This document shows, one piece after another, positions 3,696 to 31,623 of a DNA stretch of 64,000 bases; position 1 is the first letter of the stretch, and each line of letters begins with the position of its first letter. The DNA lies in IMG/VR virus record IMGVR_UViG_3300044568_002423. The stretch is one strand, 5' to 3'. Under the pieces are notes generated by a model. The model was given only the letters and a program-made list of their open reading frames with translations. It was not told where the DNA came from and did not search any database. The stretch is from a virus. The translations under genes and the position numbers were made by a program.

Positions 3696-5201
3696 TCATC
3701 GACCATTGAATATTTTCTCCATAAAATCATTGTTTGATAGCAATTCTTTCGATAACATTTTTTGTTCAAAATAATGGGATGAATGATTATGGTTAGCTTG
3801 TTGTAATTTATTGAACCAAATTAGATCTTTTTTTGCTATTGCTGGAGTTAAATTTTCAGTACCTGCCAATACATGAGACCAAAGTGTCCAATCTAAGCTA
3901 CCTAAATATTGGTCAAAATCAGAAAATCGAGGGGATCGAGTTTTACAAATTTCAAGAATGTCTCGTGTAAATTCCGTATGGACATTTTCTGAATTCATGT
4001 ATGTCCAAAAATCAGTATCAGTTCTTCCAGTACGATAATGAATAATAAGAAAATCTCTTATATTTTCAAAAACTTTTGATACTCGTTTATTATAGAATTT
4101 TTCCGCAGTTTCTGAATATGTATTATCGTATGTATCTCTTGCAAACTCATTAACAAAATACCATAATTGTATCAACGTAGCATGTATACTGGTAGCTTCC
4201 AATGGTTCAAGAAATGCGGAACTTAATCCTACTGCTAGACAATTCTTGTGCCAAAACTTTTCTAATCTTCCAGAATCAAATTTTATAACCTTCAATGGGT
4301 CTACTCCATGGCCAAGACTTTGCTCAATTTCAGCATGTGCCTGAGTATCAGTTATGTAACTATCACTATAAACATATCCAGCTCCATATCGATTTTTTAT
4401 TGGTATACGCCACATCCAACCATGTTGTTGAGCTAATGCTAATGTACTTGGTTCTATTATTTCATTTTCTTTATATTTAATATGAAATGGCATTGCTGAA
4501 TTAACTGGCAACTGCTTACCATAACTCTCCCATTTGATGCCTAGTTTTTTCACTAAAACTTGATTAAATCCACTTGCGTCGATAAAGAAATCTCCCGAAA
4601 GAGTAGTAGAATCTTCTAATACCATCGAGGCAATTTCACCGGTTTCAGTTAAATTAACATCTATTATTTCTTTATCTATATTGACAACATTTGCTTGTAG
4701 GCATATTTTTTTAAAATATTGTCCAACTAGACCTGCATCAAAATGATATGCGTGTAATCCTAAATTGTCAATTCCATTACTAAAAAAGGTAGATTTTTTT
4801 TCTTCTAACAGATACCCAAGTGGTGTTATGGTATGAGATGAACCATTGTAATCATTTAATAGTGAATATAAAAAATGATAATCAGGTATTTCGTTCGCTG
4901 AGTACGAACCATCAATAGGTTGAACATAATTAGATCCTGGTCTAACCCAATCTTGATACCTGATACCCAATTTAAGAGTGCTGTTAGTTTCTCGTAAAAA
5001 ATCAACAATATTACATCCAAAATCAGCTATTTGATTTGTTATAATACCATTTAGCAGTCCGGTACTACCTTCTCCAGCTCCAATAATTCCTATTTTACTA
5101 GAATCAACCACGGTAATGTTGTGTACATTAGGAACAATCTTTGAAAGAAACAATGCTGACAACCAGCCTGCAGTGCCTCCGCCTACAATTACTATATTCA
5201 T
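3696..5201 (-). CDS. Flavin-dependent tryptophan-halogenase-family protein (1 of 7)
   Basis: GGGTAGW, GAGEGST, TLKLGI (catalytic Lys position), FIDASG, WMWRIP, FLEPLEATSIH. Confidence 0.9.
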   Translation of the reverse strand: MNIVIVGGGTAGWLSALFLSKIVPNVHNITVVDSSKIGIIGAGEGSTGLLNGIITNQIADFGCNIVDFLRETNSTLKLGIRYQDWVRPGSNYVQPIDGSYSANEIPDYHFLYSLLNDYNGSSHTITPLGYLLEEKKSTFFSNGIDNLGLHAYHFDAGLVGQYFKKICLQANVVNIDKEIIDVNLTETGEIASMVLEDSTTLSGDFFIDASGFNQVLVKKLGIKWESYGKQLPVNSAMPFHIKYKENEIIEPSTLALAQQHGWMWRIPIKNRYGAGYVYSDSYITDTQAHAEIEQSLGHGVDPLKVIKFDSGRLEKFWHKNCLAVGLSSAFLEPLEATSIHATLIQLWYFVNEFARDTYDNTYSETAEKFYNKRVSKVFENIRDFLIIHYRTGRTDTDFWTYMNSENVHTEFTRDILEICKTRSPRFSDFDQYLGSLDWTLWSHVLAGTENLTPAIAKKDLIWFNKLQQANHNHSSHYFEQKMLSKELLSNNDFMEKIFNGR

Positions 5202-6727
5202 AAATTTTTCAAATATTCCTGATGTTTTCTGTTAATAATATTAATGAATTTTGTGTTATCTAATAATTCACTGAAGTTTTGTTTTAAATGTTCTTCCGTT
5301 TCATTAAATTTCTCCAAAGCCGATTGTTCCATATTGTAGAACTTTAGTTCTTTTTTTCCAACCTTAGCAGTCAAATTATGTGTTCCTGCTAATACGAAAC
5401 TCCATAAACCCCAACCAGACGAACCCCAAAAATTATGAAAATCCCTGGAACTCATACATCTTATTTTACTAACTTCTAATATACTTTTAACTCGGTCATT
5501 AAGTGTTGCTCCAGACGAGATATATTTCCAAAATTCAGAATCATTTCGCCCTCCTTGATAATGAGCAATTAAGAAATCTCTAAATGAATCAAACATTGTA
5601 TTACATCTATCATTAAATAAATATTCATTTCCTGAATTACAAGTTTCCTCAACCGTATCTTTGAGAAAATCAAATACCAACCAGTATAACATCACAATTG
5701 TACTATGAATAGACGTTGCTTCAAGTGGTTCAGCAAAGGCAGATGACAATCCAATTGACACACAATTTTTAGTCCAACATTTTTCCAATCGACCGGTATC
5801 AAACTTTAAAATACGAATGGGATCTATATCATGACCCAAATCTTCCTCGATGTCCCGTTGTGCTTGTTCAGGAGTAACAAAGTCATCACAAAATACATAC
5901 CCACTTCCATATCGACTACTAGTAGGAATCTTCCACATCCAACCATTTTTTTGCGCCCTTGCAATTGTAACTGGACTGATTTCTTCTCCTTTTGAATATG
6001 GTAATATAAATGGCATCGCTGAATTTACTGGCAAATTCTTGCTATAACTAATCCATTTGGAATCTAACTTTTTGTTTAATATTTTAGAAAATCCACTAGC
6101 ATCAATGAATAGGTCTCCAGTTATTTCCTGATCGATATCAAGTTTAAGTGATTTAATAAATCCGTTTTCTTTCAATACTACATCGTGTACTTTGGCATCT
6201 ATACACGTAACCCCCGATGCAAGTGATATTTTTTTAAAATATTTACCTACCAGGTTGGCATCAAAATGATATCCATGTGCTTTCACTGATCTCGTTAAAT
6301 CTGGCACGTAAGAGCTTTTATTGTTTTTAATCAAGAATCCGGTAGAAGAGCATCTGTGTATTTCTGACAGTGGCAAGTTTGACAATGCGTGTAAAAATGA
6401 ATGGTCAATTTCTTGATCCCATGTCATAGAACCAGAGATAGGACCTATATATGATTCGTTGATATCTGAACTCCATCCTTGATGGTTAATTCCATACTTG
6501 AATGTCGCTCCGGTTTCTATAAGAAACTCTTTTTCATTACACCCAAAATTAAATATTCGATTATTGATAATATCAGATAAAAATCCAGTACTTCCTTCTC
6601 CTGACCCAATAACTCCAATATCACTACTTTCGATCAATGTCACATTATGGCTGCCTGCTTGCACTTTTGAAATAAACAATGCTGCCAACCATCCGGCGGT
6701 TCCGCCGCCTACAATTACTATATTCAT
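5198..6727 (-). CDS. Flavin-dependent tryptophan-halogenase-family protein (2 of 7)
   Basis: GGGTAGW, ATFKYGI, WMWKIP, FAEPLEATSIH. Confidence 0.9.
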   Translation of the reverse strand: MNIVIVGGGTAGWLAALFISKVQAGSHNVTLIESSDIGVIGSGEGSTGFLSDIINNRIFNFGCNEKEFLIETGATFKYGINHQGWSSDINESYIGPISGSMTWDQEIDHSFLHALSNLPLSEIHRCSSTGFLIKNNKSSYVPDLTRSVKAHGYHFDANLVGKYFKKISLASGVTCIDAKVHDVVLKENGFIKSLKLDIDQEITGDLFIDASGFSKILNKKLDSKWISYSKNLPVNSAMPFILPYSKGEEISPVTIARAQKNGWMWKIPTSSRYGSGYVFCDDFVTPEQAQRDIEEDLGHDIDPIRILKFDTGRLEKCWTKNCVSIGLSSAFAEPLEATSIHSTIVMLYWLVFDFLKDTVEETCNSGNEYLFNDRCNTMFDSFRDFLIAHYQGGRNDSEFWKYISSGATLNDRVKSILEVSKIRCMSSRDFHNFWGSSGWGLWSFVLAGTHNLTAKVGKKELKFYNMEQSALEKFNETEEHLKQNFSELLDNTKFINIINRKHQEYLKNL

Positions 6728-6728
6728 A

Positions 6729-8222
6729 TTATTTTTTAAAGTTTAAAAATTCATCATGTGTCATAAAAGTTATTTGCATTTCTTTTTTAATATGTTCAGC
6801 ATTATTAAATGATTGCTCAGCCATGGTGTAGTAATTATTATCTACTAGCCATTTCTTAATTGCTTCAGAATTAAATAAGCCCAAACCTTTTGTAATGCGA
6901 GTATATGATGCAAGACCAAATATACACGGTGCAATTCTTCTATCCCAATTATCGTATATGTCAACGCTAGTGATTAAACTAAAATTACACTTTTCTAAAT
7001 AATCATCTAACCATGGCGCTTTTATATGTTTAAATTTCTTCCAAAATTTCGTATCTTCACGTTTGGTATGATAATGCAATTGAATAACTTCATAACATTG
7101 TTCATACATACGGCTCATCAATCCATTGTATTTTTTCCTTGCCCATTCGGTTTGATGTAAATTCCAAAGAGAAGTCCATAATCTCAATTGGTTTAAAATC
7201 ATGTGTATATTTGTTGCCTCTAATGGCTCGACGAATCCAGACGCTAATCCAATTGCTATACAATTGCCAGTCCATGATTGGTCAAAATATCCAGATACAA
7301 ATTTAAAAGGGGTGTCTGACACTTTAATATCATATCCAAATTCATTTTTTAAATATTTTTCAAATTCATCAATTGCTTCTTCTTCTGTTGCACATAGTGA
7401 TGAGTATACATATCCTAACCCATATCGATCCTTCAAAGGAATTTTCCAAAACCATCCAGCATTAGCAGCAACCGATTCAGTATATGGTGGTACATTTGTA
7501 TTATTGTGCGGAACTTGAATTGTATAAGCTGTATCGGTAAGAATTGATCCTCGTTTATCAATAAATTCACACCCTAATTTAGGCAGTAAAAATGAATTTT
7601 GCCCAGAAGCATCTATAAAAAAATCTGCTGTTATTTTTCCAACATTTTTTCCAATTATATATTCAATAGTAGTATCCGTAATTACCACATCTACTATTAT
7701 ATCATCTATTACAGTTACAGATGAAGAAAATTTGTCACAGATAAATTTACTAAACAATGTTCCATCAATGTGCAATGCGACAACAGAGTTTATTTCCCCA
7801 TTACCATCAGTTGGTACCAGGTTGTTTTCGCATAATGATGGATGATATGTTTCCGCACCAGTGTTTAAATTATTTGCTATTTCATATCCGGCAATGATAT
7901 TAGGATCTAATATCATATCGGGAATATCACCAAATGAGTTAAAATTATGATAATAATGTTCATTATCACCATTCCAATTTTCAAACTTAATTCCCAGTTT
8001 AATTGTTGCACCAATATTATCTATTAGTTCCCTGATAGATATATCAACAACTCGCAAGTAATCAATGATGGCCGGAGTGGTACTTTCACCAACTCCTATT
8101 ACTGGATGGGCATGATCATATACTATAGTGATTTCAACTTGTTCTTTATAAAGTGTCTTGATATAACTGGCAGCAATCCACCCTGCGGTGCCACCGCCAA
8201 TTACACATATTTTTGTTGTCAT
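6729..8222 (-). CDS. Flavin-dependent tryptophan-halogenase-family protein (3 of 7)
   Basis: GGGTAGW, GVGESTTP, ATIKLGIKF, WFWKIP, FVEPLEATNIH. Confidence 0.9.
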   Translation of the reverse strand: MTTKICVIGGGTAGWIAASYIKTLYKEQVEITIVYDHAHPVIGVGESTTPAIIDYLRVVDISIRELIDNIGATIKLGIKFENWNGDNEHYYHNFNSFGDIPDMILDPNIIAGYEIANNLNTGAETYHPSLCENNLVPTDGNGEINSVVALHIDGTLFSKFICDKFSSSVTVIDDIIVDVVITDTTIEYIIGKNVGKITADFFIDASGQNSFLLPKLGCEFIDKRGSILTDTAYTIQVPHNNTNVPPYTESVAANAGWFWKIPLKDRYGLGYVYSSLCATEEEAIDEFEKYLKNEFGYDIKVSDTPFKFVSGYFDQSWTGNCIAIGLASGFVEPLEATNIHMILNQLRLWTSLWNLHQTEWARKKYNGLMSRMYEQCYEVIQLHYHTKREDTKFWKKFKHIKAPWLDDYLEKCNFSLITSVDIYDNWDRRIAPCIFGLASYTRITKGLGLFNSEAIKKWLVDNNYYTMAEQSFNNAEHIKKEMQITFMTHDEFLNFKK

Positions 8223-8244: not shown

Positions 8245-8541
8245 TTAAGAAACTAATACGTTTGGAACTTTAAACGGATCATCTGGATTTACAATATATT
8301 CTTCCGCAGTAATTCGTTGGTCTGCCAAAGGTTCATCGCTCATTTCAATTAATTTTTCCCTATCGGTTAAAATTTCAGTTCCAAAATGCATTGCTTTTTT
8401 TATTTCAAGATCGCTCAATGCGGTCATTGCGGTGTCAATTCTATGCCTAAAGGCATTTTGTATCCAATCATCTGGATTTAAACAAATATGTTCCATCGCA
8501 CGAACTTCTGGGTCAGTCAGTGTTATTGTATATTCAGCCAT
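8245..8541 (-). CDS. Small helical protein, paralogue of the upstream gene; possible fibre-tip chaperone/accessory
   Basis: Shares YT.T.TD.E..A......P..W.......R...AM..L...E.KKA with 8541..8888; translationally coupled to it. Confidence 0.5.
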   Translation of the reverse strand: MAEYTITLTDPEVRAMEHICLNPDDWIQNAFRHRIDTAMTALSDLEIKKAMHFGTEILTDREKLIEMSDEPLADQRITAEEYIVNPDDPFKVPNVLVS

Positions 8542-8888
8542 TATAAACCTCCGCCTAAAAATGTTCTAGGAGTATCTGCTACTACTTCCGGGGTAGTAAG
8601 TTGCGCCATAACTGCTGGATCTAATGTCATTTCTTCTTGTTGTTTAGTATGCTTTTCCATCGAGGTTAATTCACTACTTGCTAATACGACCTCTTCTATA
8701 TTTGAACTAATAGAAGATATCTCTGGGTCGGCCAAGGCTTTTTTAAGTTCAATGCTATATAATTCCTTCATAGCACACGCAGCTCTATGTTTCACTAAAG
8801 TTGCTAACCAAATTTGTGGATCTAATTCTACCCACCTTAATGCTTTTTCTTCTAAATCTGTTGTTGTAACTGTATAAGTTTGAGGCAT
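8541..8888 (-). CDS. Small helical protein; possible fibre-tip chaperone/accessory (start revised to 8888)
   Basis: AGGAGA SD precedes the ATG at 8888 (MPQTYTV...); paralogue of 8245..8541. Confidence 0.5.
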   Translation of the reverse strand: MPQTYTVTTTDLEEKALRWVELDPQIWLATLVKHRAACAMKELYSIELKKALADPEISSISSNIEEVVLASSELTSMEKHTKQQEEMTLDPAVMAQLTTPEVVADTPRTFLGGGL

Positions 8889-8899
8889 AATTTCTCCTG

Positions 8900-9433
8900 T
8901 TATCCTAATAATTGATAAGTTGCGACACACCATCCGCCTGAATATAATCGTCCGCCATCATGACCAAACCATAAATAATCACCAGCACTACAATTTATTA
9001 CCCCAATCCAGTGTGTAGTAGCATAATTTAAGTTTGCTGATCCGACCATATGTCCACCATTACTTATAAAAGTTCCGTTTCTATAACCATAATAATGATC
9101 ATTAGGATTGGCATATGCGTTTCCACAATGTAAAACATTCATGCTCATTCTGTAATTTCCAGGAACTGGGCAGACAAAATAATATTGATTAAAGTTATAG
9201 TGATTTCCCTCTCCGCCATAATCAGTATCAAATGGTAGTTTACCACCTGCCCACACTATTTGATTGCCAGCTCCGCCCGATAATGCGTACACGCATCTCC
9301 AAACTGGTTGTGTCTTTTCCAACATTCCAGATGCGTTATCGACGTTGGCTTTTACCGTACTGCCATCTGTTCCAATAATACCAAAATTAGTATCGGTTCT
9401 AATTCCCATTCCACTACTAAAATAAATTGTCAT
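8900..9433 (-). CDS. C1q/TNF-like domain protein (fibre tip paralogue C)
   Basis: LPFD...YNFNQYYFVCPVPGNYRMS...CSAGDYLW matches the C1q F.(A/C)P..G.Y and L..GD pattern. Confidence 0.7.
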   Translation of the reverse strand: MTIYFSSGMGIRTDTNFGIIGTDGSTVKANVDNASGMLEKTQPVWRCVYALSGGAGNQIVWAGGKLPFDTDYGGEGNHYNFNQYYFVCPVPGNYRMSMNVLHCGNAYANPNDHYYGYRNGTFISNGGHMVGSANLNYATTHWIGVINCSAGDYLWFGHDGGRLYSGGWCVATYQLLG

Positions 9434-10020
9434 TTAATAAAACTCGCCGTCATCGTAGTCCACCCATTATCTCCCCATACATTACCACCATTCCGACTAT
9501 ATACTTGGAGTTGGTCACCAGCACTTAAGTTAATTATCATTTCCCAGGCTTGAGTCAGATAGGAAATTTCAGAACTTACTACATGTATTCCCTCATACCA
9601 ACTGCCACCATTTAACAGTCCAGTAACTATGGCATTACCGCCCATTAAAGCACAACAACTCCATCTATATGTTCCCGTAACCGGGGCAGTAAAACACAAT
9701 TGACTAGCTCTTGTACCAACATTTGTTCTTACATCTATCGTTGGCAAACTACCATAAGTCTTGGTGGTAGGAATTGGATTTTGATTACCGGTGGCGCCAC
9801 CTTCAGTTTTTCTCAAAACTATCGCGGGAGAGCCATACACATTTGTAACAATACCATAATCATCAAATCTCATATGTTCAACATTTGATGCAGTCGAATC
9901 ATAGAATCCTATATTTGAAGTGCTCGCACCAGTAGTTATACTCGTGGTACCATTTTGATAATAGTTTGTAGCAGAGCTGCCCTTGATCCATCTATCACTA
10001 GTTGAAAAATTAATAGCCAT
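9430..10020 (-). CDS. C1q/TNF-like domain protein (fibre tip paralogue B)
   Basis: FTAPVTGTYRW...INLSAGDQLQV; fibre-type EHMRFD segment N-terminal to the domain. Confidence 0.7.
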   Translation of the reverse strand: MAINFSTSDRWIKGSSATNYYQNGTTSITTGASTSNIGFYDSTASNVEHMRFDDYGIVTNVYGSPAIVLRKTEGGATGNQNPIPTTKTYGSLPTIDVRTNVGTRASQLCFTAPVTGTYRWSCCALMGGNAIVTGLLNGGSWYEGIHVVSSEISYLTQAWEMIINLSAGDQLQVYSRNGGNVWGDNGWTTMTASFIK

Positions 10021-10023
10021 AAT

Positions 10024-10533
10024 TTATCCTATGTAATCTATAGTATATACAGTCCAACTGCCACCCCATGTTTTTCCAGAATTTTGATTTCCTCTAAATT
10101 CTAAATTATCACCGGCATTTGCATAACAGATCCAGCTCCAACCAAGTGTTGTGTATCCACCAGTTCCACTGATAGTATTATGAGCACCAGTATTCATCTG
10201 CCCGTCATTTTTTGCAGCCCAGTGATGCCAATTAGTTCTACATAATGCGCTAGCAGTCATGCGATACGCACCAGTTCTTGGACAATAAAATCTATTTCCA
10301 GTAAAGGTAAAAGTTCCAGAAGAACTCGCCAGTGCTATTGGATCCAAATAGTTATTTGCACCAGCGACAACATCTCCACCAAAACCCCCAGTCATTAATG
10401 CCGTTACATGCTTGGTGTCTGACAATGTACCGCTTGAATAGCTATAGCTAAGTCTGTCAGTACCACCAGTTTGAACAACCATGTTCCCACTAGCATTTAC
10501 ATAAATTTGTGTTCCATTTCCCTGTATAGCCAT
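10024..10533 (-). CDS. C1q/TNF-like domain protein (fibre tip paralogue A)
   Basis: RFYCPRTGAYRMT...ANAGDNLEF; fibre-type TGGTDRL segment. Confidence 0.65.
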   Translation of the reverse strand: MAIQGNGTQIYVNASGNMVVQTGGTDRLSYSYSSGTLSDTKHVTALMTGGFGGDVVAGANNYLDPIALASSSGTFTFTGNRFYCPRTGAYRMTASALCRTNWHHWAAKNDGQMNTGAHNTISGTGGYTTLGWSWICYANAGDNLEFRGNQNSGKTWGGSWTVYTIDYIG

Positions 10534-11882: not shown

Positions 11883-11890
11883 TATTTATC
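11883..11890 (-). promoter_or_regulatory. Late-type promoter GATAAATA for the fibre B / C1q / halogenase operon
   Basis: Motif lies 33 nt upstream of the ATG at 11849; the same motif heads most operons in the window. Confidence 0.65.
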
Positions 11891-11994
11891 ATAATATTTC
11901 AACACCATAGTTTTGTATATAATGTAAAATTTCATTTGTGTCCCCACCGGTAAAATTAAATGATATATAGTTGTATAATATATTAGGAGAAACT

Positions 11995-12300
11995 ATGACA
12001 CATATTATACCGATTCGAGATCGTTTACTAGTAAAAAAGATTGAAGACGAACTCAAAACAAAAACTGGGCTCATTCTTTCTGATGATACAAAAGAACGAC
12101 CCACAAAAGGCACAGTATTGGCATGTGGGGAAGGTAGATTAAATGATGATGGCAAACTTTTACCTATGATTATCAAATTGGGAGATACAATTTTATATCC
12201 AAAATATGCAGGTCACCCAATCAAAGTTGATAATGAGGAATATTTAATCCTCGACGAAGACGAAGTTTTAGGAATTTTAAAGGAAACTACAAATGGCTAA
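11995..12300 (+). CDS. groES: Co-chaperonin GroES (start revised to 11995)
   Basis: PIRDRLLVK...GLIL...GTVLACGEG...GDTILYPKYAG...EYLILDEDEVLG; AGGAGA SD before the ATG at 11995. Confidence 0.95.
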   Translation: MTHIIPIRDRLLVKKIEDELKTKTGLILSDDTKERPTKGTVLACGEGRLNDDGKLLPMIIKLGDTILYPKYAGHPIKVDNEEYLILDEDEVLGILKETTNG

Positions 12301-13957: not shown

Positions 13958-13969
13958 TATACTATTGAC

Positions 13970-13997
13970 AAAAAAGGCAGAAATATCTGCCTTTTTT
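13970..13997. terminator. Bidirectional intrinsic terminator
   Basis: AAAAAAGGCAGA-aata-TCTGCCTTTTTT between the convergent groEL and chaperone genes. Confidence 0.85.
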
Positions 13998-14007
13998 ATT
14001 GTCTAAA

Positions 14008-14467: not shown

Positions 14468-14475
14468 TATTTATC
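14468..14475 (-). promoter_or_regulatory. Late-type promoter GATAAATA
   Basis: Just upstream of the fibre chaperone gene. Confidence 0.55.
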
Positions 14476-20080: not shown

Positions 20081-20088
20081 GACAATAC

Positions 20089-23329: not shown

Positions 23330-23336
23330 ATGTGAA

Positions 23337-23378
23337 TATTTATAAAATAACAATACCGGTATGAAAAAAACATAAGTA
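23337..23378. promoter_or_regulatory. Divergent late-type promoters (TATAAATA on - at 23337-23344; CATAAGTA on + at 23371-23378)
   Basis: Exact T4 late consensus on the minus strand, variant on plus, within a 69-bp divergent gap. Confidence 0.6.
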
Positions 23379-23398
23379 TTAATTATAAGAGGACATTC

Positions 23399-24865
23399 AT
23401 GAAAGTATCTAGTATAACTATAGTCGGCGGCGGCACTAGCGCATGGTTGACTGCTGCATATTTGTATAAAAATCATTCAAACATTAAAATAACTATCATC
23501 GATAAAGAAGTGGGAAATGCGATAGGGGTTGGCGAAGCAACTATTTTGAGTTTTAAACCATTTATGGAAGAATGCGGTTTTCCCATCGAGGAATGGATAG
23601 TACCATTAGATGCTGGATATAAATCGGGAATAATGTTTACAAACTGGCGGGAATCGGGTGATGATATCTGGCATCCATTCTTTAAAGGAAATAGGAAATT
23701 AGCTAATGGAAAATATGTATGGGATGTATGGTCTAACACAACACATCTAGATTACAAAAAATACGCACTAGCAAGTTATGAAGCGTCAGCTATTCATAAT
23801 TCGATTGACACATTTAATATTGATAGTTATGCCTCCCATATAGACTGTGGAAAATTAGTGCTATTCATTCAATCCAAACTTATTGATAAAATATCAATAA
23901 TTAAATCAGACGTTCAACAGATAGTAGATAAGGAAGACGGGGATATTGACCATTTAGTACTAAAAAATGCAGTTACTATTAGGAGTGATTTGTACATCGA
24001 TTGTACTGGATTTAATCAAATATTAAGAACACCGCAAAGGAGAATAGATTTATCCGACAGATTATTTGTCAATACCGCAGTAGTTTCGCAGGTCCAATAT
24101 GAGAATAGAGTTGATGAATTTAAACCATATGCTATTTGTGATGCGGTAGATCATGGGTGGGTTTGGAAAATAGGAGTGTCATCCCGTATAGGAAGTGGAA
24201 TGGTGTTTAATAGAAATATTACGGACATAGACGAAGCCAAAAATTATTTTGTCAAGTATTGGGATGGCAGAGTGGTAAAAGAAAATACTAGAGTTATTAA
24301 TTGGGACCCGTTCTATAATGAAGATCAATGGGTAGGCAATGTAGTAAGTATCGGGCTAAGTGCTGGGTTTATAGAACCATTGGAAAGCACCGGAGTTGGT
24401 ATAATAACAGCAGGAATAACACAATTATCTAATGCCCTACAGGAAAGATTTTATCTCAAAGATGATGTTTCATATTTCAATCTACGTATGAAATTATTAT
24501 TTGAAGATTGTGTTGATTTTGTTAGCATGCATTACGCAAACAATAATAGGACTAGCAAGTTTTGGGATATGGTACGCGCGACGTTTAAACCATCGGACAG
24601 AATGATACATCATATAAATGAATTAACAGATCCATCAATTAGCATTTCAGATAATGGCAAATATAATTACATGTTTGGCAATGGTAATTGGCGTGTGCTG
24701 CTTCAACAATTAGGATTTAATGCTGCTATTCGAAATGATATGCCAGAAGAAATTGCAAATGAGTTATTGGTTAAAAATTATATTGAATTTGAAAAAAATA
24801 AGCATATTTGGTCTAGGCATCATAGTAGAGAAATAGATAGAATTACTGAGTTGAATAAATTATGA
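23399..24865 (+). CDS. Flavin-dependent tryptophan-halogenase-family protein (6 of 7)
   Basis: GGGTSAW, GVGEAT, AGYKSGI, WVWKIG, FIEPLESTG. Confidence 0.88.
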   Translation: MKVSSITIVGGGTSAWLTAAYLYKNHSNIKITIIDKEVGNAIGVGEATILSFKPFMEECGFPIEEWIVPLDAGYKSGIMFTNWRESGDDIWHPFFKGNRKLANGKYVWDVWSNTTHLDYKKYALASYEASAIHNSIDTFNIDSYASHIDCGKLVLFIQSKLIDKISIIKSDVQQIVDKEDGDIDHLVLKNAVTIRSDLYIDCTGFNQILRTPQRRIDLSDRLFVNTAVVSQVQYENRVDEFKPYAICDAVDHGWVWKIGVSSRIGSGMVFNRNITDIDEAKNYFVKYWDGRVVKENTRVINWDPFYNEDQWVGNVVSIGLSAGFIEPLESTGVGIITAGITQLSNALQERFYLKDDVSYFNLRMKLLFEDCVDFVSMHYANNNRTSKFWDMVRATFKPSDRMIHHINELTDPSISISDNGKYNYMFGNGNWRVLLQQLGFNAAIRNDMPEEIANELLVKNYIEFEKNKHIWSRHHSREIDRITELNKL

Positions 24866-25596
24866 AGGTAGTAAATTGGTCATTTCTTACTAGTCATGAA
24901 TGGGATATAGATCATACCCCATGTGTTAAAACATTAATGAATGATTATTATCCATTTGGTTATTTACCAAAAGAAGTTATATCGATACGACAAGATGCCG
25001 TGTTTTTAAAGTGTCCAAGTCATACTGACTTTTTAAAAAACACATATATCTTACAGGCACCTTTTGATTTAACTATCGAGATTGACATAAATGAACGTAG
25101 TCATTATAAAGTAGTCTGTGAAAATATCAGTCAGGAGGTATTTGAACATCTAATAGACATACGATTTTTAGATGATTACAATTCTGAAACTAATATCTTT
25201 CCAGTGATTGGAATTGATTGGTTGACAATATTGACATGTGACGAATCGATGTTATTACAAGTAATGCCAGCATTTATGCACCGTAATGATTTTACAGAAA
25301 AGACAACTCTAATCCCTGGAGAATTTGATATAAGCAAATGGACACGACCAGTTGAGATTGTCTTTGAAATAAAAAGCAACAAAGAAAAAATTGTAATAAA
25401 AAAAGGTGATGCCATCGCATACTTTAAGTTTCACAGTAATGAATCCATAAAATTAGTAGAACAACCAACTCCATGGGAAGAAATTAAACTATGTAATTCA
25501 ATTCGTCAACAAAATAAATTTAGACCGTTGAAAGAACGCTATGCTTCATTGGAAAATGAACGAATTAAAAGGTGCCCCTATGAGCAAAAAAATTGA
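24862..25596 (+). CDS. Hypothetical protein, possibly DUF6065/dUTPase-like beta fold
   Basis: KCP...Y.L.APFD...IPG.FD..KW.RP...IKKGDAIAYF pattern; embedded between two halogenases. Confidence 0.45.
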   Translation: MKVVNWSFLTSHEWDIDHTPCVKTLMNDYYPFGYLPKEVISIRQDAVFLKCPSHTDFLKNTYILQAPFDLTIEIDINERSHYKVVCENISQEVFEHLIDIRFLDDYNSETNIFPVIGIDWLTILTCDESMLLQVMPAFMHRNDFTEKTTLIPGEFDISKWTRPVEIVFEIKSNKEKIVIKKGDAIAYFKFHSNESIKLVEQPTPWEEIKLCNSIRQQNKFRPLKERYASLENERIKRCPYEQKN

Positions 25597-27145
25597 TGAG
25601 ATAGTTATAGTAGGTGGCGGAAGTTCTGGATGGATAACTGCTGCCTCATTAATTACGCAATTAACAGGTAAAAAAATTACCGTAATAGAAAGTCCAAATA
25701 TTTCAACAGTTGGAGTAGGGGAGAGCACAGTTGGTGGGATCAGGGCATGGTTGAGAATGGTTGGTATTAGTGATAAGGACTTTATGGTTGCCACCGATGC
25801 CAGTTATAAACTAGCAATTAAGTTTACTAATTTCTACACGAAGGACAGTGGATCTTGGTATTATCCATTTGGAACAGCTTGTTTGAAAGATACCATGCAT
25901 GGACAAGATGATTGGTTTATCAAAAAGGCAATATATCCAAATACTAAATCGGTCGATTATGTCAATTCATATTATCCACAGATGGCACTAGTCAATGAAA
26001 ATAAAATGATGGTTAATGATGGATTGCTTGGCAATTTTGACTTCTATAACGATACGGCCTTTCACTTTGATGCTACCAAATTTGGAGCATGGCTGAGAGA
26101 TAATCATTGTATACCACGCGGAGTCAACCATATAGTAGATGAAGTAGTTGATATTACTAAAAATTTAGATGGCATAGATGAATTAATTCTACATTCAGGT
26201 AAAAGAGTGTCGGCAGATTTATTCGTAGATTGTACTGGATTTAACTCATTACTACTTGGTAGGACATTAAAAGTACCATTTAATAGTTTTGAACATATAC
26301 TACCTAATAATAGAGCATGGGCTACTCATATACCATATACCAATAAAGAAAAACAATTAAATTCAGTGACTGAATGTACAGCATTAGATAATGGTTGGGT
26401 TTGGAACATACCATTATGGAGCCATATTGGAACTGGATATGTATACAGTGATAAACATATATCACCAGAAAAAGCCAAGATGGATTTTATTACCCATTTA
26501 CAATCAAACGGATTTGATACCAGTTCCTGTATATTCAAGGATATACCGATGAAGATAGGAATGTATGAAAAATTATGGGTCAAGAATGTTGTAGCGATAG
26601 GATTAAGTGCTGCTTTTGTAGAACCGTTAGAGAGTTCAGGATTATTAACCACACATGATTTTGCTAGAACATTATGTAATATATTGCTAAGAGGACGAGT
26701 TAGTCAATGGGATCGTGATGAATTTAATTTAAAATGCGAGGATGAATTTAACTATTGGGCACAATTTGTATCAATGCATTATGCGTTAAGTCACCGTGAT
26801 GATTCTAAATATTGGAAAGATATAAGTGAGAAATCATATGTGGGATTAGTCAACACTGTCAATAAATTACAAACGCAAAGCTTATATCATCAAACCTTGT
26901 ATCAGAAAAATTTTGTAAAATATTTCCAAGATGACCCAGGTATAAATTGTTTAGCGGCAGGAATGAATTGGAATGCGAATGATATAACTACCCTTAATAA
27001 TATTTTTGCGGTAGGGACAGATCTCAAACATGAATTTTCAATTGTTATTGATAACTTATCTAAAAGAACCCAGAATTGGAAAAGGGCAGTAGAAACTGCC
27101 CCTTCATTGTATCAATATCTTAAAAATAAATTTTATATAAATTAA
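25580..27145 (+). CDS. Flavin-dependent tryptophan-halogenase-family protein (7 of 7; start revised to 25580)
   Basis: GGGSSGW, GVGEST, ASYKLAIKF, FHFDA, WVWNIP, FVEPLESSG. Confidence 0.92.
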   Translation: MSKKIDEIVIVGGGSSGWITAASLITQLTGKKITVIESPNISTVGVGESTVGGIRAWLRMVGISDKDFMVATDASYKLAIKFTNFYTKDSGSWYYPFGTACLKDTMHGQDDWFIKKAIYPNTKSVDYVNSYYPQMALVNENKMMVNDGLLGNFDFYNDTAFHFDATKFGAWLRDNHCIPRGVNHIVDEVVDITKNLDGIDELILHSGKRVSADLFVDCTGFNSLLLGRTLKVPFNSFEHILPNNRAWATHIPYTNKEKQLNSVTECTALDNGWVWNIPLWSHIGTGYVYSDKHISPEKAKMDFITHLQSNGFDTSSCIFKDIPMKIGMYEKLWVKNVVAIGLSAAFVEPLESSGLLTTHDFARTLCNILLRGRVSQWDRDEFNLKCEDEFNYWAQFVSMHYALSHRDDSKYWKDISEKSYVGLVNTVNKLQTQSLYHQTLYQKNFVKYFQDDPGINCLAAGMNWNANDITTLNNIFAVGTDLKHEFSIVIDNLSKRTQNWKRAVETAPSLYQYLKNKFYIN

Positions 27146-28257
27146 TATTTGATAATAACGACACCAGAACCACCATCGGCGCCGTGTTGTCCGCCGCCAG
27201 CACCACCGCCGGTATTTGCACCACCGTGTCCGCCACGAGCAGTTGGTTGGCCATCTTGCCCCGTTATAAGTGCCTGTCCACCACCAGACCCTAATTTAAC
27301 AGTTGCTCCATACGGTCCTCCGTGGTGGTGTCCTCCTCCTCCTCCGCCACCGATTCCCCCATCGGAAAATCCCCAGCCTAAATGTCCACCACCAGCGCCA
27401 CCGCCACCAAAGTATAACGTGCTTCCAAGAATATCACTCGCCCTTCCAGAACCACCATTAATCATATTACTTCTAAAACTTCCACGATAATTTTGCCTAC
27501 CATCCGGTGCACTACCACCCTGACCGCCAGCGCCACCGCCAGCCCCACCTTGATGAGTATTTTCAGTATCAATATTGAATCTAACACCAGAACCACCTGG
27601 ATAGCCCTGCCCAGTAGTTCCATATCCACCATAACATCTAGTTCTAGGATCAATTCCATCTCCGGTATTCGCACCGCCACCGCCACTTCCACCATTACGA
27701 CCAGAAGTTATACCATTATCACGAAATCCAGGACTGGTATGTGTCCATGAACCACCGCCACCACCGCCTGTTGCAGTAATGGATGAAAACACACTATTTC
27801 CACCACTTGGTCCAGCAACTGCGGGAGCTCTACCAGTGCCACCAGCGCCAACGGTAACTGGGTACGGTGTTCCAGCAGTTACTGGAAAGCTACGATTCAT
27901 AAGAACTCCACCGCCACCACCGCCGCCTGCCCAGTCATATCCACTAGAACCACCGCCGGCTACCACTAATACCTGTATATTACCAGTAAATGTTGGAGTG
28001 AATGTTGCTGCACCAACTGTAGTAAAAGTATGAATTATATTTGAACGATTGTAGGAAATAGTACCACCAGTTCCTACTACTCCCTGACTATATCCAGTTA
28101 CAGGACGCCAAAATCCACCATCATTAAATTCTAAAGTATTCTGTCCATTTGTAGTATTGTATCGTATTTTAGCAGTGCCAGTAACTGTACTAGTTGTGTT
28201 GGTTGGCATTGCTAATGCGGCGGTTGAATTTATTATAGTATTTTTTAAACTTGCCAT
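27142..28257 (-). CDS. Glycine-rich (polyglycine) adhesin-like protein, paralogue C
   Basis: HTFT..G..TF, VLVVAGGG, GGGGGG runs, VTVGAGG, GANTGGGAGGG, GGSGVVIIKY; gp38-like Gly-rich domain architecture. Confidence 0.75.
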   Translation of the reverse strand: MASLKNTIINSTAALAMPTNTTSTVTGTAKIRYNTTNGQNTLEFNDGGFWRPVTGYSQGVVGTGGTISYNRSNIIHTFTTVGAATFTPTFTGNIQVLVVAGGGSSGYDWAGGGGGGGVLMNRSFPVTAGTPYPVTVGAGGTGRAPAVAGPSGGNSVFSSITATGGGGGGSWTHTSPGFRDNGITSGRNGGSGGGGANTGDGIDPRTRCYGGYGTTGQGYPGGSGVRFNIDTENTHQGGAGGGAGGQGGSAPDGRQNYRGSFRSNMINGGSGRASDILGSTLYFGGGGAGGGHLGWGFSDGGIGGGGGGGHHHGGPYGATVKLGSGGGQALITGQDGQPTARGGHGGANTGGGAGGGQHGADGGSGVVIIKY

Positions 28258-28270
28258 TTATTTTCTCTTA

Positions 28271-29410
28271 TTAATATCTTACAATAACTATACCGGAACC
28301 GCCTGTGCCAGCCGTCCCATACGCTCCGCCGCCACCAGAACCTGTATTGACACCGCCATTACCACCAGTATTAGGATTCGTGCCAGGCGTACCAGCTCCA
28401 CCAGTGTTCAATGATTGTCCACCACCTAACCCATTGCCATGAGATGTAGTTGGCTGTCTTGGACCACCGTGTGATTGCGTACTACCGCCACCGCCACCAA
28501 TCCCTCCAGAGTTTGCCACTGTTGTGTTTCCTTGATGTTGAGACCCAGCGCCGCCGCCTGCCCAATACAGCGTATATCCCAAGATGTCATTTGCCGTACC
28601 TGGCCCACCATTTGACTGTAATCCTTGATGACAATCATCTTCGCCACTAAATCCCGGACCACCAGACCCACCTCCGCCTCCAGATTTATGAGAATCTTCT
28701 GCTTGACGATTAAATCTAATACCAGAACCGCCAGGAAATCCCTGTCCGGTAATTCCTCTACCGCCTAAATTTGTATTTCGGCTATCATTTGGTCCAGTAT
28801 GGCTATTTGATCCAGCGCCTGTACTACCAGTACATCCACCACCACCACTACCACCTGATTTTGCAGCATGTCCATCCCATGAACCAGCACCACCGCCGCC
28901 CGTTGCGGTAATAGAACCAAATACACTATTACTTCCAGGGTTTGAAGTGCCATATGCGGCAACTGCCGCACCGCCAGCGCCAACTGTAACTGGTATATTA
29001 GTACCACTTGTTACTGAATAGGAACGATTAAATGTCATTCCTCCAGCACCACCGCCGCCGCCTAAATGACCGCCACCTGTGCCACCACCGCCTATAACTA
29101 GTACTTCGACAGTACCACTAAATGCGGGAGTAAATGTAAAACTGCCAGCGGTGGTAAACATATGTACAACACCATTTGCTCGGCCAAGATTTGAGGTAGC
29201 ATACAAGATACTATCTCCACCTGTACCAATCGAACCCTTGCTCACTCCGGTAATTGGTCGCCATCCAGAACTGTCATAAAATTCTAATAAATTGTTAGTA
29301 TTGTTAACTCGTATCATCCCGGCAGTTGGGGATGGACGTTGTGATGTATCACCGACCGGCAATGTTAAATAGCCGGTATCATTAATAATTGTATCTCTGA
29401 AAATTGCCAT
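28271..29410 (-). CDS. Glycine-rich (polyglycine) adhesin-like protein, paralogue B
   Basis: N-terminal LPVGDTSQRP...GMIRVN...EFYD...W module plus Gly-rich domain ending GGSGIVIVRY. Confidence 0.75.
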   Translation of the reverse strand: MAIFRDTIINDTGYLTLPVGDTSQRPSPTAGMIRVNNTNNLLEFYDSSGWRPITGVSKGSIGTGGDSILYATSNLGRANGVVHMFTTAGSFTFTPAFSGTVEVLVIGGGGTGGGHLGGGGGAGGMTFNRSYSVTSGTNIPVTVGAGGAAVAAYGTSNPGSNSVFGSITATGGGGAGSWDGHAAKSGGSGGGGCTGSTGAGSNSHTGPNDSRNTNLGGRGITGQGFPGGSGIRFNRQAEDSHKSGGGGGSGGPGFSGEDDCHQGLQSNGGPGTANDILGYTLYWAGGGAGSQHQGNTTVANSGGIGGGGGSTQSHGGPRQPTTSHGNGLGGGQSLNTGGAGTPGTNPNTGGNGGVNTGSGGGGAYGTAGTGGSGIVIVRY

Positions 29411-29419
29411 TTATATTCC

Positions 29420-30484
29420 CTAATATCTCACTACCACTATACCGGACCCGCCAGTGACACCACCACCACCGCCAGCACCGCCGCCACCGCCTGTATTTGT
29501 ACCGCCAACACCACCGCCATTGCCATGTGTACCATTATTAGTGCCAGGACCGCCTTGATTTAAAGCCTGTCCACCGCCAAAACCAGTACTGTATGTTAAC
29601 GGAGTTCCTGGAAAATAATGAGCCGCTCCGCCACCGCCACCGCCTATACCGCCAAATCCGCCGCCACCATCACATATGTGAGGTCCACTAGCACCACCGC
29701 CAGCCCAATATAGTACGTCGCCTAATATATCACTAGCGGCACCAGGTCCGCCACTCGTTGCTGTTTGTTGATTTTCATCTTGTGCCGCCAAACCTGGTCC
29801 ACCAGCGCCACCGCCGCCACCGCCATTATGAGTATTTTCAGCATCGTCGTTGAATCTTACGCCAGAACCACCTGGAAATCCTTGACCGGTTAACCCAAGT
29901 CCACCAAAACTCCTGGCTCGACTCCCATCAGCATCAGTATTTGCACCTCCCCCGCCAGAACCGCCATTACACGCAGCTGGAGCTGCAGTATTATTCCACC
30001 AATTAGAATGGCCGCCACCTGTTGCGGTAGTTGAACCAAACGTGGTATTGCCGCCAGCAGCAGTTGAACCTGCTCCAACACTTAATGGTATACCAACCCC
30101 AGCGGTTACTGGATAGGCACGGTTAAAGATCATTCCGCCGCCACCACCGCCGCCGCCCCAACTACTATGCCCACCACCGCCGCCACCAGCAACTGTTAAT
30201 ACTTGAACATATCCGGTAAAAGTAGGAGTAAATGTAGCGGCGCCGACTGCTGTAAATTGATGAACAACCCCACCACCCAACAGTGATATGGAATTTCCAC
30301 CAGTTCCTATTGAGCCATTACTATAACCGGTGACGGGCCGCCAATTGGTGCCATCGTAATATTCCATAATGGTAATAGTTGTATTGTATCGCATCATTCC
30401 TCGTGTGGGAGATGCTGGACGTTGTGCGGTTGTGCCGGATGGAAGTGTTAAATCAGTAAACGTACTTGATAATAGAGTAGCCAT
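29420..30484 (-). CDS. Glycine-rich (polyglycine) adhesin-like protein, paralogue A
   Basis: N-terminal LPSGTTAQRP...GMMRYNT...EYYDG..W module plus Gly-rich domain ending GGSGIVVVRY. Confidence 0.75.
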   Translation of the reverse strand: MATLLSSTFTDLTLPSGTTAQRPASPTRGMMRYNTTITIMEYYDGTNWRPVTGYSNGSIGTGGNSISLLGGGVVHQFTAVGAATFTPTFTGYVQVLTVAGGGGGGHSSWGGGGGGGGMIFNRAYPVTAGVGIPLSVGAGSTAAGGNTTFGSTTATGGGHSNWWNNTAAPAACNGGSGGGGANTDADGSRARSFGGLGLTGQGFPGGSGVRFNDDAENTHNGGGGGGAGGPGLAAQDENQQTATSGGPGAASDILGDVLYWAGGGASGPHICDGGGGFGGIGGGGGGAAHYFPGTPLTYSTGFGGGQALNQGGPGTNNGTHGNGGGVGGTNTGGGGGAGGGGGVTGGSGIVVVRY

Positions 30485-30488
30485 AAAA

Positions 30489-31598
30489 TTATTTAGTGCC
30501 TTTTAATTGATCTATTTCCATTTTTAACATTTTCACTGCTTCTATCAAATATGCAGTAAATTTAGTATATTGAATACCATATGGTTTTCCCTGTTCATCC
30601 AATGTTACTATATCGGGTATTACTTTATAGACTTCTTCGGCAATTAAACCAGCTTCATTATAATGAGTTCCATCTTTGCGATCGTATGTCACACCAGTCA
30701 ATCGTGAAATTGTATTTAACGCATCAGTTATTGGATTGACATTTTCCTTAATGGCGATACTTGATTGTTCAGTAAAGGTACTAGATATTGTTAGAGCACC
30801 AGCGCCAGATAATGTCATGATATTAGAAGCGGCGGCGTACCATTTATGACTAGCACCACTGTTGGAAACACTATACCATAACTCACTACCTGCCATGCCC
30901 ATTGCGTAATCTGTCTGTGTAGCAGATATATCGGGGTAAAATACGATCTTTGTTCCAGCAGATCTAGTAGTAGTTGCCGGAACAGCAGTACCAGCAGTAC
31001 TAAAATCTATTCGATTACCAGAAGTGCCATTTAAATACAATTGGCCACTACCAGTAGCGGCATTATTGGCAGCAGTTGATTGGATTTGTCCAGTGGCCGT
31101 AACTGAACTAAAACGCCCAGTACCCGCAGTTGTTGCACCAACATTAACATTATCCATTGTTCCAGTAGTAGCAGGACTAATAGTAACCACCCCAGTTCCA
31201 CTTGGGCTAATTACAACATTGGCATTAGCGGGACTTAATGTAACTGCCGCACTAGCATTGATAGTAGTAGCTACTAAAACCCCACCATTTTCATTAATTA
31301 TAACATAATTCGTACCATCTGATGCCAAGGTAATGGTAGTTAGTGTTGGAATGGTTTGTGAACTAGTTCCAGAACTACTCGGTCCTTTAAATATACCGGA
31401 TGGAGTTGTAATTGTAATTACCCCAGACGTGGCATTATAGAATGTCTGTGTTTCTCCAAAATAAATAGTTGGATTTGGTATGGTTACTGTGTAGGGAGCC
31501 GTACCGGTAAATTGAGTAAATAAACCTTGTGCGGGAACCGCAACTGTGCCGGATGCAGTGACTGTATTTGCTGATGCTATGGTATTATATCTTGCCAT
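30489..31598 (-). CDS. Tail/fibre protein, copy A, with C-terminal intramolecular chaperone (peptidase S74) domain
   Basis: SSIAIKENV...L.GVTY...GLIAEEV...P..V...IQY......LIEAVK.L..EI..LK. Confidence 0.85.
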   Translation of the reverse strand: MARYNTIASANTVTASGTVAVPAQGLFTQFTGTAPYTVTIPNPTIYFGETQTFYNATSGVITITTPSGIFKGPSSSGTSSQTIPTLTTITLASDGTNYVIINENGGVLVATTINASAAVTLSPANANVVISPSGTGVVTISPATTGTMDNVNVGATTAGTGRFSSVTATGQIQSTAANNAATGSGQLYLNGTSGNRIDFSTAGTAVPATTTRSAGTKIVFYPDISATQTDYAMGMAGSELWYSVSNSGASHKWYAAASNIMTLSGAGALTISSTFTEQSSIAIKENVNPITDALNTISRLTGVTYDRKDGTHYNEAGLIAEEVYKVIPDIVTLDEQGKPYGIQYTKFTAYLIEAVKMLKMEIDQLKGTK

Positions 31599-31623
31599 TT
31601 ATTTGTTCTCGTTAAAGGTAGTA
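30832..31623 (-). repeat. Long direct repeat, copy A (pairs with ~11080-11874)
   Basis: See copy B; offset 19749 bp at the start codons; left boundary approximate. Confidence 0.9.

Follow-up and report, generated by a model that had tools for sequence, protein, structure and literature searches.

Organization of the locus

The DNA analyzed here, hereafter the window, is a 64,000-nucleotide (nt) stretch of the IMG/VR virus record IMGVR_UViG_3300044568_002423 and originates from a T4-related large myophage. It encodes seven flavin-dependent halogenases and nine proteins of the 2-oxoglutarate (2OG)-Fe(II) oxygenase type, interleaved with two tail-fiber cassettes and with chaperones. An earlier reading of the sequence (the original prediction) had proposed that these enzymes tailor the phage's own fiber proteins. 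We arrive at a tentative form of this proposal, in which the genes make up an optional island whose enzymes may decorate the neighboring adhesins.

Pfam scans took in the open reading frames (ORFs) of 365-31982 and six of the smaller ORFs further downstream, but neither the giant proteins (32006-59428) nor the reading frames at 2-304 and 63023-63766. Trp_halogenase (PF04820) matched seven ORFs at E values (E) of about 8e-80 to 2e-102:

3696-5201, minus strand: halogenase 1, final gene of cassette A (PF04820 E 2.8e-98; motifs intact)
5198-6727, minus strand: halogenase 2 (PF04820 E 1.6e-100; 48% identity to halogenase 1)
6729-8222, minus strand: halogenase 3 (PF04820 E 2.2e-92)
17258-18820, plus strand: halogenase 4 (PF04820), in the oxygenase 4-halogenase 5 operon
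20089-21552, plus strand: halogenase 5 (PF04820), with motif variant GWMFNIP
23399-24865, plus strand: halogenase 6 (PF04820 E 8.1e-80), with motif variant GWVWKIG
25541-27145, plus strand: halogenase 7 (PF04820 E 2.3e-102), convergent with Gly-rich tip 1

Seven divergent halogenases

The seven intact PF04820 ORFs bear out the number of flavin halogenases originally given. The GxGxxG motif that binds flavin adenine dinucleotide (FAD) takes the form GGG(T/S)(A/S)G in all seven, the column of the catalytic Lys (K77) is invariant (alignment A1), and the EPLE segment is kept throughout. The K77 column aligns with the segment a(s/t)yK(l/n)(a/s)I in VirX1 and in a Trp 5-halogenase; the catalytic Lys, which guides the hypohalous species, is K79 in PrnA and VirX1 (PMC8407142). 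The WxWxIP motif, which sets halogenases apart from monooxygenases, reads GW.W.IP in five of the seven and is replaced by the variants GWMFNIP and GWVWKIG in the other two. Judged by these motifs, all seven halogenases are catalytically intact. Their N-termini open with the FAD motif, with no signal peptide or membrane anchor.

Pairwise identity among the seven is only 25-48% (25-33% for the other six against halogenase 7), so they are old paralogs and not recent duplicates. The C-terminal columns are the most divergent, with a mean identity of 18.7% compared to 33.7% in the core. Among solved structures, VirX1 (PDB 6qgm; E 5e-98) is the best match to halogenase 7 and aligns over the full length; alignments with free-Trp halogenases end at about residue 430-454 of 534, and only VirX1 reaches the end. 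MibH (PDB 5uao) matches halogenase 7 at E 1.4e-40. With halogenase 7 (25541-27145) alone as the query, at most three matching places per record were found across 50,697 phage records, and close IMG/VR relatives carry at most five halogenases each. Seven is the highest number seen among the isolates and close relatives examined.

Nine ORFs of the 2OG-Fe(II) oxygenase type

The oxygenases lie on both strands between the two fiber cassettes:

14474-15127, minus strand: oxygenase 1, labeled 'ferrochelatase' in PHROGs; its model has a prolyl-4-hydroxylase-like fold
15124-15909, minus strand: oxygenase 2 (2OG-FeII_Oxy_3), with HAD...H...R
15906-16538, minus strand: oxygenase 3 (2OG-FeII_Oxy_3), with HIE and without the distal His
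16639-17244, plus strand: oxygenase 4, of a family with HxD...H...R
18795-19448, plus strand: oxygenase 5, a weak Oxy_3 match of the HxD...H...R family
19445-20080, plus strand: oxygenase 6 (DUF6445)
21554-22222, minus strand: oxygenase 7 (2OG-FeII_Oxy_5, PF13759)
22128-22736, minus strand: oxygenase 8 (2OG-FeII_Oxy_5, PF13759)
22733-23476, minus strand: oxygenase 9, of the HxD...H...R family
16639-21552, plus strand: operon of oxygenase 4, halogenase 4, oxygenase 5, oxygenase 6 and halogenase 5

Nine ORFs of this type had been predicted and nine are present. The distal His is missing from 15906-16538, so the tally is amended to eight canonical members and one non-canonical. Oxygenase 3 has Tyr for the distal His and Asn for the 2OG-binding Arg, and the Tyr also appears in 6 of 10 orthologs; by these residues it is a conserved non-canonical or inactive member. 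Pfam thresholds are reached by five of the nine. The set comprises at least four families, mostly without mutual BLAST matches, and several of the canonical members show features of prolyl-4-hydroxylases. Oxygenases 4, 5 and 9 form one family, in which H113, D115, H177 and R188 are invariant; in the family of oxygenase 1, H99, D101, H171 and R173 are invariant. Profiles of these two families gave nothing significant against PDB sequences.

The model of oxygenase 1 (predicted local distance difference test, pLDDT, of 95) has its best Foldseek matches in the prolyl-4-hydroxylases 4j25/4iw3 (E 6e-10), and 4iw3 is a protein prolyl hydroxylase structure solved with EF-Tu. At E ≤ 1e-3 its double-stranded β-helix (DSBH) fold has at least 500 PDB matches, and all listed top hits are 2OG oxygenases. 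No scanned ORF gave a JmjC or Cupin_4 match at Pfam E ≤ 0.01, in a search that did not pursue remote homology.

Two kinds of database label were set aside. The 'ferrochelatase' label of 14474-15127 (PHROGs, cyanophage records) is contradicted by the iron- and 2OG-binding residues and the DSBH fold, and the 'DNA endonuclease V' labels given to oxygenase families in PHROGs and GenBank are contradicted by the HxD..H..R signature. These doubtful labels concern the families of 14474-15127, 16639-17244, 18795-19448 and 22733-23476, and also the Sf-CH11 and P-RSM6 records. We note that the longest ORF at 21554-22222 overlaps its upstream neighbor by 95 nt and that the longest ORF at 22733-23476 has an implausible hydrophobic leader; an internal Met (at about 23329 for 22733-23476) is probably the real start of oxygenases 7 and 9.

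A dUTPase-fold protein within the array

One further gene of the array lies between halogenases 6 and 7:

24862-25596, plus strand: dUTPase-fold Cys-Pro protein of 244 amino acids (aa)

Its model (pLDDT 92) has only dUTPases as top Foldseek hits, at weak significance (E about 2e-3), and C51-P52 is invariant. The match to Syn9 gp43 is weak (hhalign E 0.015, with an HHalign probability of only 3%); in that alignment the Cys-Pro and A-P-x-D motifs pair. The protein at 24862-25596 probably corresponds to the Cys-bearing dUTPase-fold protein described from the Syn9 array. The gene follows halogenase 6 in all but one clade member among the relatives. It stands immediately 5′ of halogenase 7 in many relatives and recurs in more distant islands.

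Fiber cassettes, tips and chaperones

The structural genes among which the enzymes lie are the following:

10536-11849, minus strand: cassette A fiber (437 aa), whose C-terminal domain recurs beside halogenases
8900-10533, minus strand: three C1q-like tip paralogs (177, 196 and 169 aa; ESM Atlas C1q clusters)
8245-8933, minus strand: two small proteins of 98 aa and 130 aa, encoded between tips and halogenases
11971-13957, plus strand: groES-groEL pair (Cpn10 E 2e-27, Cpn60 E 1.9e-76)
14008-14442, minus strand: tail-fiber assembly chaperone Phage_tail_APC (PF16778 E 3.5e-14), directly 3′ of oxygenases 1-3
27142-30484, minus strand: three Gly_rich_2 tip paralogs (PF21722; 29-31% Gly)
30489-31598, minus strand: cassette B fiber with a C-terminal S74 chaperone domain (PF13884 Peptidase_S74 E 2.4e-10; many tail-fiber PHROGs)
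30489-31982, minus strand: 109-aa gene and S74 fiber, the 109-aa gene forming the head of cassette B

By gene content, two fiber-tip cassettes and an assembly chaperone are present. The two fiber/adhesin cassettes, fiber chaperone and GroES/EL of the original prediction were recovered through Pfam matches for GroES, GroEL, Phage_tail_APC, the S74 fiber and Gly_rich_2. Cassette A runs in the order fiber, three C1q-like tips, two small genes and three halogenases. From the fiber through halogenase 1 its genes overlap or are at most 22 nt apart, which upholds the claim that three halogenases share a tight operon with the C1q-like tips.

The C1q-like tips are mutually 26-29% identical. In the ESM Atlas, C1q clusters at 0.95 account for 29 of 30 feature hits, with a template modeling (TM) score of 0.80, and the Pfam C1q match is sub-threshold (E 0.011). 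The 98-aa and 130-aa proteins belong to no Pfam or PHROG family, and the profile of the Gly-rich tips has no match among PDB sequences. The N-termini of the two fibers are 95% identical over the first 100 aa and 94% over 150 aa, and their C-termini diverge, so a recent partial duplication made the second tip cassette.

All tips had been described as rich in Trp and His. This is partly borne out: the tips are no more than moderately rich in Trp, with 2.8-3.6% in the C1q-like tips and 0.8-1.4% in the Gly-rich tips, which have 2.0-2.4% His. An N-terminal motif, MAI.F / MA(T/S)L..., is alike across tips of very different folds, which stand in threes after a fiber; it occurs in 8900-10533, 27142-30484, L004, L009, L021 and L144 (L numbers denote the IMG/VR loci described below). 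This pattern points to interchangeable tips that share one attachment module.

An optional island at a module junction

The proteins at 365-1744 and 1744-3237 are neck/sheath-completion proteins, with a T4 gp15 family match at E 8e-23, and the minus strand beyond 32 kb encodes giant structural proteins of 3677, 2758, 1347 and 1051 aa. The gp15-like protein is nearest to those of the jumbo phages Sinorhizobium Phosso, Agrobacterium Atu_ph07 and Pseudomonas PA5oct (30-35% identity); the cyanomyoviruses are not its nearest relatives. Its top identity to IMG/VR relatives is 69%, and megablast of the island against the 50,697 phage records gave zero matches, with no close DNA relative there. A 223-kb relative at 60% completeness (CheckV) gives a genome size of about 370 kb, which implies that the window phage is a jumbo myophage with a genome of roughly that size.

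For comparison, we assembled about 300 IMG/VR loci in four sets: 80 picked with a halogenase, 80 with the gp15-like protein, 21 with a Gly-rich tip, and 120 with a degenerate DNA pattern for the Gly-rich C-terminus. A tblastn search with a Gly-rich tip recovered the N-terminal domain only, owing to low-complexity masking. Six annotated cyanophage halogenase regions were added, together with the Gly-rich adhesin region of S-MbCM100, which has no halogenase.

The island occupies the junction of the neck genes (gp14/gp15-like, NUDIX) with the tail-fiber module. Among the loci selected by the gp15-like protein with at least 4 kb downstream (n=39), halogenases follow NUDIX in 13; in the other 26, NUDIX directly adjoins fiber or giant genes. 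Island presence is scattered on the gp15-like tree, where several sister pairs contrast. The island is an optional, mobile and patchy insert.

Where visible, the far edge of the island usually adjoins Gly-rich adhesins, both in 17 syntenic relatives and in at least 10 other arrangements (L029, L031, L033, L034, L036, L049, L060, L064, L119 and L132). The order of cassette B (109-aa gene, fiber, three Gly-rich tips) is kept in at least 17 loci, and groES-groEL keeps the same spot in relatives. A whole-contig search at the Pfam cut-off found Gly_rich_2 in three of five island contigs (L095, L135 and L073) compared to none of five island-less ones. In the Kyanoviridae Syn9, P-RSM6, S-RIM44 and Sf-CH11, a fiber or giant protein is followed by Gly-rich paralogs, halogenases and a 2OG array; between the Gly-rich paralogs and the halogenases stands a small gene in three of these four and two oxygenases in Sf-CH11. 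Pfam confirmed Gly_rich_2 for S-RIM44 and P-RSM6. In this comparison arrays almost always lie beside fiber-tip adhesins, in the lineage of the window and independently in Kyanoviridae, two deeply separate lineages. The expected genomic linkage across related phages stands insofar as arrays adjoin fiber-tip adhesins, but not in the other direction, as most such adhesins have no enzymes.

The halogenase 1/2 clade occurs repeatedly inside fiber operons, and the clade of halogenase 1 adjoins fiber genes in L009, L004, L014 and L021. The whole of cassette A is repeated in L009 (fiber, three tips, two small genes, halogenases), where the 98-aa and 130-aa genes keep their position. L004 has a collagen/S74 fiber, a fiber C-domain, a halogenase, three tips and Phage_tail_APC in overlapping genes; L014 and L021/22 have a fiber-halogenase pair; and in L035 halogenases alternate with Gly_rich_2 genes. 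Homologs of the C-terminus of the 437-aa fiber stand directly 5′ of halogenases in L004, L014 and L021/22. Neither jackhmmer nor a hidden Markov model of the C1q-like trio gave a significant relative among the loci; the best hits, the L009 tips, had E 0.012 to 1.8.

Sister islands also carry GT2, GT7/LamG, adenosine phosphosulfate (APS) kinase, an HldE-like heptose enzyme and an epimerase. In L035:11511-21435, halogenases stand with GT2 and GT7/LamG glycosyltransferases and APS kinase, and in L006:6456-8944 two halogenases stand with PfkB + cytidylyltransferase-like, NAD epimerase and cupin genes; Gly-rich or giant fiber genes adjoin both.

Histidine content of linked adhesins

Composition counts were used for the tips in place of a column-wise comparison of His, Trp and Pro, which divergence confounds. 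Gly-rich adhesins with a halogenase or oxygenase within 6 kb contain 2.35 ± 0.69% His (n=60) compared to 0-0.6% (0.3% overall) in enzyme-less comparison adhesins (n=3; p 0.006), in samples that, here and below, are small and not independent. Cyanophages follow the same direction, with 0.2% His in the enzyme-less adhesin of S-MbCM100 and 1.0-4.1% in array-linked adhesins. Within the pattern-selected set (68 proteins with the motif at the C-terminus), halogenase-linked adhesins have 1.84% His (n=5, three lineages) compared to 0.56% in enzyme-less ones (n=52; p 0.001), and oxygenase-only adhesins have 0.63%. Trp content is the same in halogenase-linked and enzyme-less adhesins, whereas His is 3-4 times higher in the halogenase-linked Gly-rich ones. 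As His and not Trp tracks with halogenase linkage, the residues that matter, should the tips be substrates, may be His or Tyr. Another possibility is that a metal site bound by His accompanies the enzymes for a different reason.

In the tips of the window clade, H76, H235, H292 and P220 of x-P-G are invariant (alignments A3 and A6). The Gly-rich tips contain an invariant G-x-P-G-G segment. The loci in the His comparison were L163-L179, L181, L182, L190-L309, L188:12376-13590 and 27142-30484 of the window. L108 was dropped as an enzyme-less Gly-rich adhesin: it shares the N-terminal domain alone, and the protein has 8.7% Gly.

Expression signals

The motif GATAAATA, with an ATAAATA core, precedes the gp14-like gene, the cassette A fiber, the tail chaperone, the 109-aa gene, a giant protein and other structural genes, 17-101 nt upstream and in the correct orientation. 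ATAAATA itself is under-represented in the window (23 observed compared to 46 expected). The sites are as follows:

334-340, plus strand: GATAAATA site
11883-11889, minus strand: GATAAATA site, 34 nt upstream of the cassette A operon
14468-14474, minus strand: GATAAATA site
32003-32009, minus strand: GATAAATA site
43077-43083, minus strand: GATAAATA site
56253-56259, minus strand: GATAAATA site
62968-62974, minus strand: GATAAATA site

From its placement, GATAAATA is likely a T4-type late promoter. The tail chaperone (14008-14442) has its own copy, and AATAAATA stands 26 nt upstream of the oxygenase 4-halogenase 5 operon. With the late motif before some operons only, late co-expression is plausible for part of the island. 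Sigma-70-like hexamers precede groES; a scan for terminators and sigma-70 promoters did not rise above shuffled expectation. A strong hairpin with A and T runs at 13958-14007, between the convergent groEL and tail chaperone and missed by the simple scan, looks like a bidirectional terminator.

Relation to known systems

In cyanophage Syn9, Iyer et al. (2010) described ten tandem dioxygenases, drawn from five or more families, together with two tryptophan halogenases and a new protein of dUTPase fold bearing a conserved cysteine, and this type of array was read as making halogenated secondary metabolites (PMC2938197). The window resembles Syn9 gp41-54 in its tandem non-orthologous dioxygenases, halogenases and dUTPase-fold Cys protein just after fiber genes. 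It differs in belonging to another lineage, in having seven halogenases compared to two, in lacking a detectable JmjC/MINA-No66-like member at Pfam E ≤ 0.01, and in having its genes divided between the two strands, with chaperones and a second fiber cassette among them. As the components match, including the dUTPase-fold protein, we regard the island as an enlarged example, from another lineage, of a kind already described.

VirX1 is the halogenase of cyanophage Syn10, with a large open active site and an unknown natural substrate (PMC8407142). In contrast to the window enzymes, it comes from a genome with one or two copies, and it is characterized on small molecules in vitro only. MibH-type halogenases of ribosomally synthesized and post-translationally modified peptides (RiPPs) belong to the same Pfam family and act on peptide-bound Trp residues, but VirX1 and the free-Trp halogenases are both much closer to halogenase 7 than MibH is. 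A RiPP locus includes a precursor peptide, an exporter and leader-dependent enzymes, and the scanned ORFs contain none of these.

Viral hydroxylases that act on viral structural proteins include the collagen lysyl hydroxylase/glucosyltransferase L230 of Mimivirus and the prolyl 4-hydroxylase of PBCV-1. They set a precedent for a 2OG oxygenase acting on a virus's own collagen-like or Gly/Pro-rich surface proteins, although both come from giant viruses of eukaryotes, which have one or two such enzymes and do not halogenate. Polyglycine adhesins of the gp38 type in T-even phages are small, Gly-rich receptor-binding tips encoded after the distal fiber gene. The three PF21722 paralogs of the window are likewise encoded after a fiber, without a sequence match to any solved structure.

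Bacterial operons join 2OG dioxygenases, sulfotransferases and synthesis of 3′-phosphoadenosine-5′-phosphosulfate with tail-collar or Gly-rich collagen-like proteins, for which hydroxylation and sulfation were predicted (PMC2938197). As in the window, oxygenases are co-encoded there with Gly-rich or fiber-like proteins as proposed substrates, and the sister island L035 has an APS kinase. Those operons are without halogenases and are still predictions, and the window is without sulfation or glycosylation genes.

Possible substrates of the enzymes

Our preferred explanation, to which we give a probability of about 0.4, is that the genes form an accessory adhesin-decoration island, a mobile and hypervariable block whose enzymes chemically modify the phage's own adhesins. 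We advance more hesitantly the specific form in which the halogenases and 2OG oxygenases modify His, Tyr, Trp or Pro of the Gly-rich and C1q-like tips. In this scheme, cytoplasmic tailoring enzymes would act late in infection on freshly made Gly_rich_2 and C1q-like tips, either ahead of assembly or while it proceeds. Hydroxylation by the oxygenases would fall on residues such as His, Asn, Asp or the Pro of x-P-G. The halogenases, provided with reduced FAD (FADH2) by a host flavin reductase, would target Tyr, Trp and His side chains whose aromatic or imidazole rings are exposed, each paralog serving a site of its own. The chemistry so added to the receptor-binding surface could be gained, lost and swapped as a module.

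Several lines of evidence lead us to adhesin decoration. The island is optional, arrays stand beside Gly-rich adhesins in two lineages, and halogenases are embedded in fiber operons. Cassette A lies behind the GATAAATA motif common with structural genes, and oxygenases 1-3 are directly 5′ of the fiber chaperone. The macromolecule-decorating enzymes of the sister islands match the hydroxylation-sulfation scheme (PMC2938197). The nearest fold of oxygenase 1 is the protein prolyl hydroxylase 4iw3, VirX1 has an open active site, and halogenase-linked Gly-rich adhesins have higher His. Finally, genes for scaffold, precursor and export are absent from the scanned ORFs. There, as originally noted, we found no nonribosomal peptide synthetase, polyketide synthase, carrier, transporter or flavin-reductase family, and likewise no RiPP precursor, core scaffold, export or immunity gene; gaps between genes are at most 121 nt, leaving no space for hidden small ORFs.

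A number of observations weigh against this explanation. The fiber-tailoring idea is partly supported, in that arrays adjoin adhesins and halogenases lie inside fiber operons, but the adhesins are mostly enzyme-less: at the 120 pattern-selected Gly-rich loci, with a few kb visible each, a halogenase is in view at 6 and any tailoring enzyme at 21. The same fiber and tip families occur without enzymes in L181, L144, L118 and S-MbCM100, and lone cyanophage halogenases sit amid psbA/hli genes (S-MbCM6) or replication genes (S-B64). As insertions are known to gather at module junctions, position alone could account for the adjacency, and many linked loci are mutually related, so the counts are not independent. 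A late-type motif precedes only cassette A and one oxygenase operon, and no exact late motif was found before oxygenases 3-1 or before halogenase 6-halogenase 7. The Trp-substrate detail is weak for the Gly-rich tips. No modified residue is observed anywhere, and we know of no flavin-dependent halogenase that acts on a folded protein. VirX1 halogenates small molecules in vitro (PMC8407142). A predicted complex of halogenase 7 with Gly-rich tip 1 (24-row alignments each) scored 0.00 in a run without controls and is evidence neither way. A literature search found no report of halogenated or hydroxylated phage fibers, and we could not find an earlier proposal of fiber tailoring for phages.

The most serious rival, unlikely in our judgment, is a small-molecule pathway, in which a free amino acid, indole or short peptide, drawn from the host, is successively halogenated and hydroxylated into a secondary metabolite (an antibiotic, siderophore-like compound or signal) made during infection. 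Such a reading is published for the Syn9 array, by analogy with cephamycin-type multi-dioxygenase pathways (PMC2938197), and Iyer et al. (2021) read a cyanophage halogenase/2OG oxygenase/carbamoyltransferase cluster likewise (PMC7824862). VirX1 accepts many small aromatics in vitro (PMC8407142), L006-type relatives join two halogenases with sugar-nucleotide enzymes, and lone halogenases occur amid metabolic genes. Yet the scanned ORFs include no scaffold enzyme, carrier, methyl- or acyltransferase, protease or exporter; 16 tailoring enzymes without a core are unlike known gene clusters; and the pathway leaves unexplained both the array-adhesin adjacency in two lineages and the halogenases within fiber operons.

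Another macromolecular target, such as the giant 2758-3677-aa virion proteins, the baseplate, host proteins, or envelope or glycans, is less probable still; modification of these might serve to block superinfection, disarm defense or remodel receptors. Giant structural genes do lie immediately past cassette B, the glycosyltransferases, APS kinase and heptose-nucleotide enzymes of the sister islands could act on glycans, the patchy, fast-turnover distribution is like that of arms-race loci, and the nearest structural match of oxygenase 1 hydroxylates a host-type protein, EF-Tu. Linkage is nevertheless tightest to the tip genes and not to the giant proteins, the halogenases are without signal peptide or membrane anchor, and no defense-related family was seen in the scans, which did not include a dedicated PADLOC search. 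We consider it very improbable that the locus is a coincidental hot spot, where unrelated morons gathered at a permissive module junction serve general physiology, for instance by using up 2OG to manipulate host nitrogen signaling or in DNA/RNA repair. The insert is optional, and for cyanophage 2OG oxygenases Sullivan et al. (2010) proposed 2OG/NtcA manipulation and cited DNA repair (PMC3037559); some oxygenase families are labeled 'DNA endonuclease V' in PHROGs, but that label and 'ferrochelatase' conflict with the residues and fold described above. A 2OG sink needs neither nine oxygenases nor any halogenase, and whether NtcA is relevant depends on the host. Instead, the same enzyme families come together with the dUTPase-fold protein again and again, which argues for a common pathway.

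Implications

If the metabolite reading is true, the tailoring set would be among the richest known in any virus. On either reading the island offers a compact test locus, and the His enrichment of halogenase-linked adhesins is a specific lead. If adhesin decoration is true, it would provide the first case of a folded or structural protein halogenated by an enzyme, and the seven divergent paralogs would form a natural panel for site-specific protein halogenation, long sought in biocatalysis. Proteins would then prove to be what VirX1 and other viral halogenases act on in nature. For the phages themselves, the island would provide a swappable layer of host range unseen in the amino-acid sequence, and receptor recognition by abundant aquatic phages would escape sequence-based host-range prediction.

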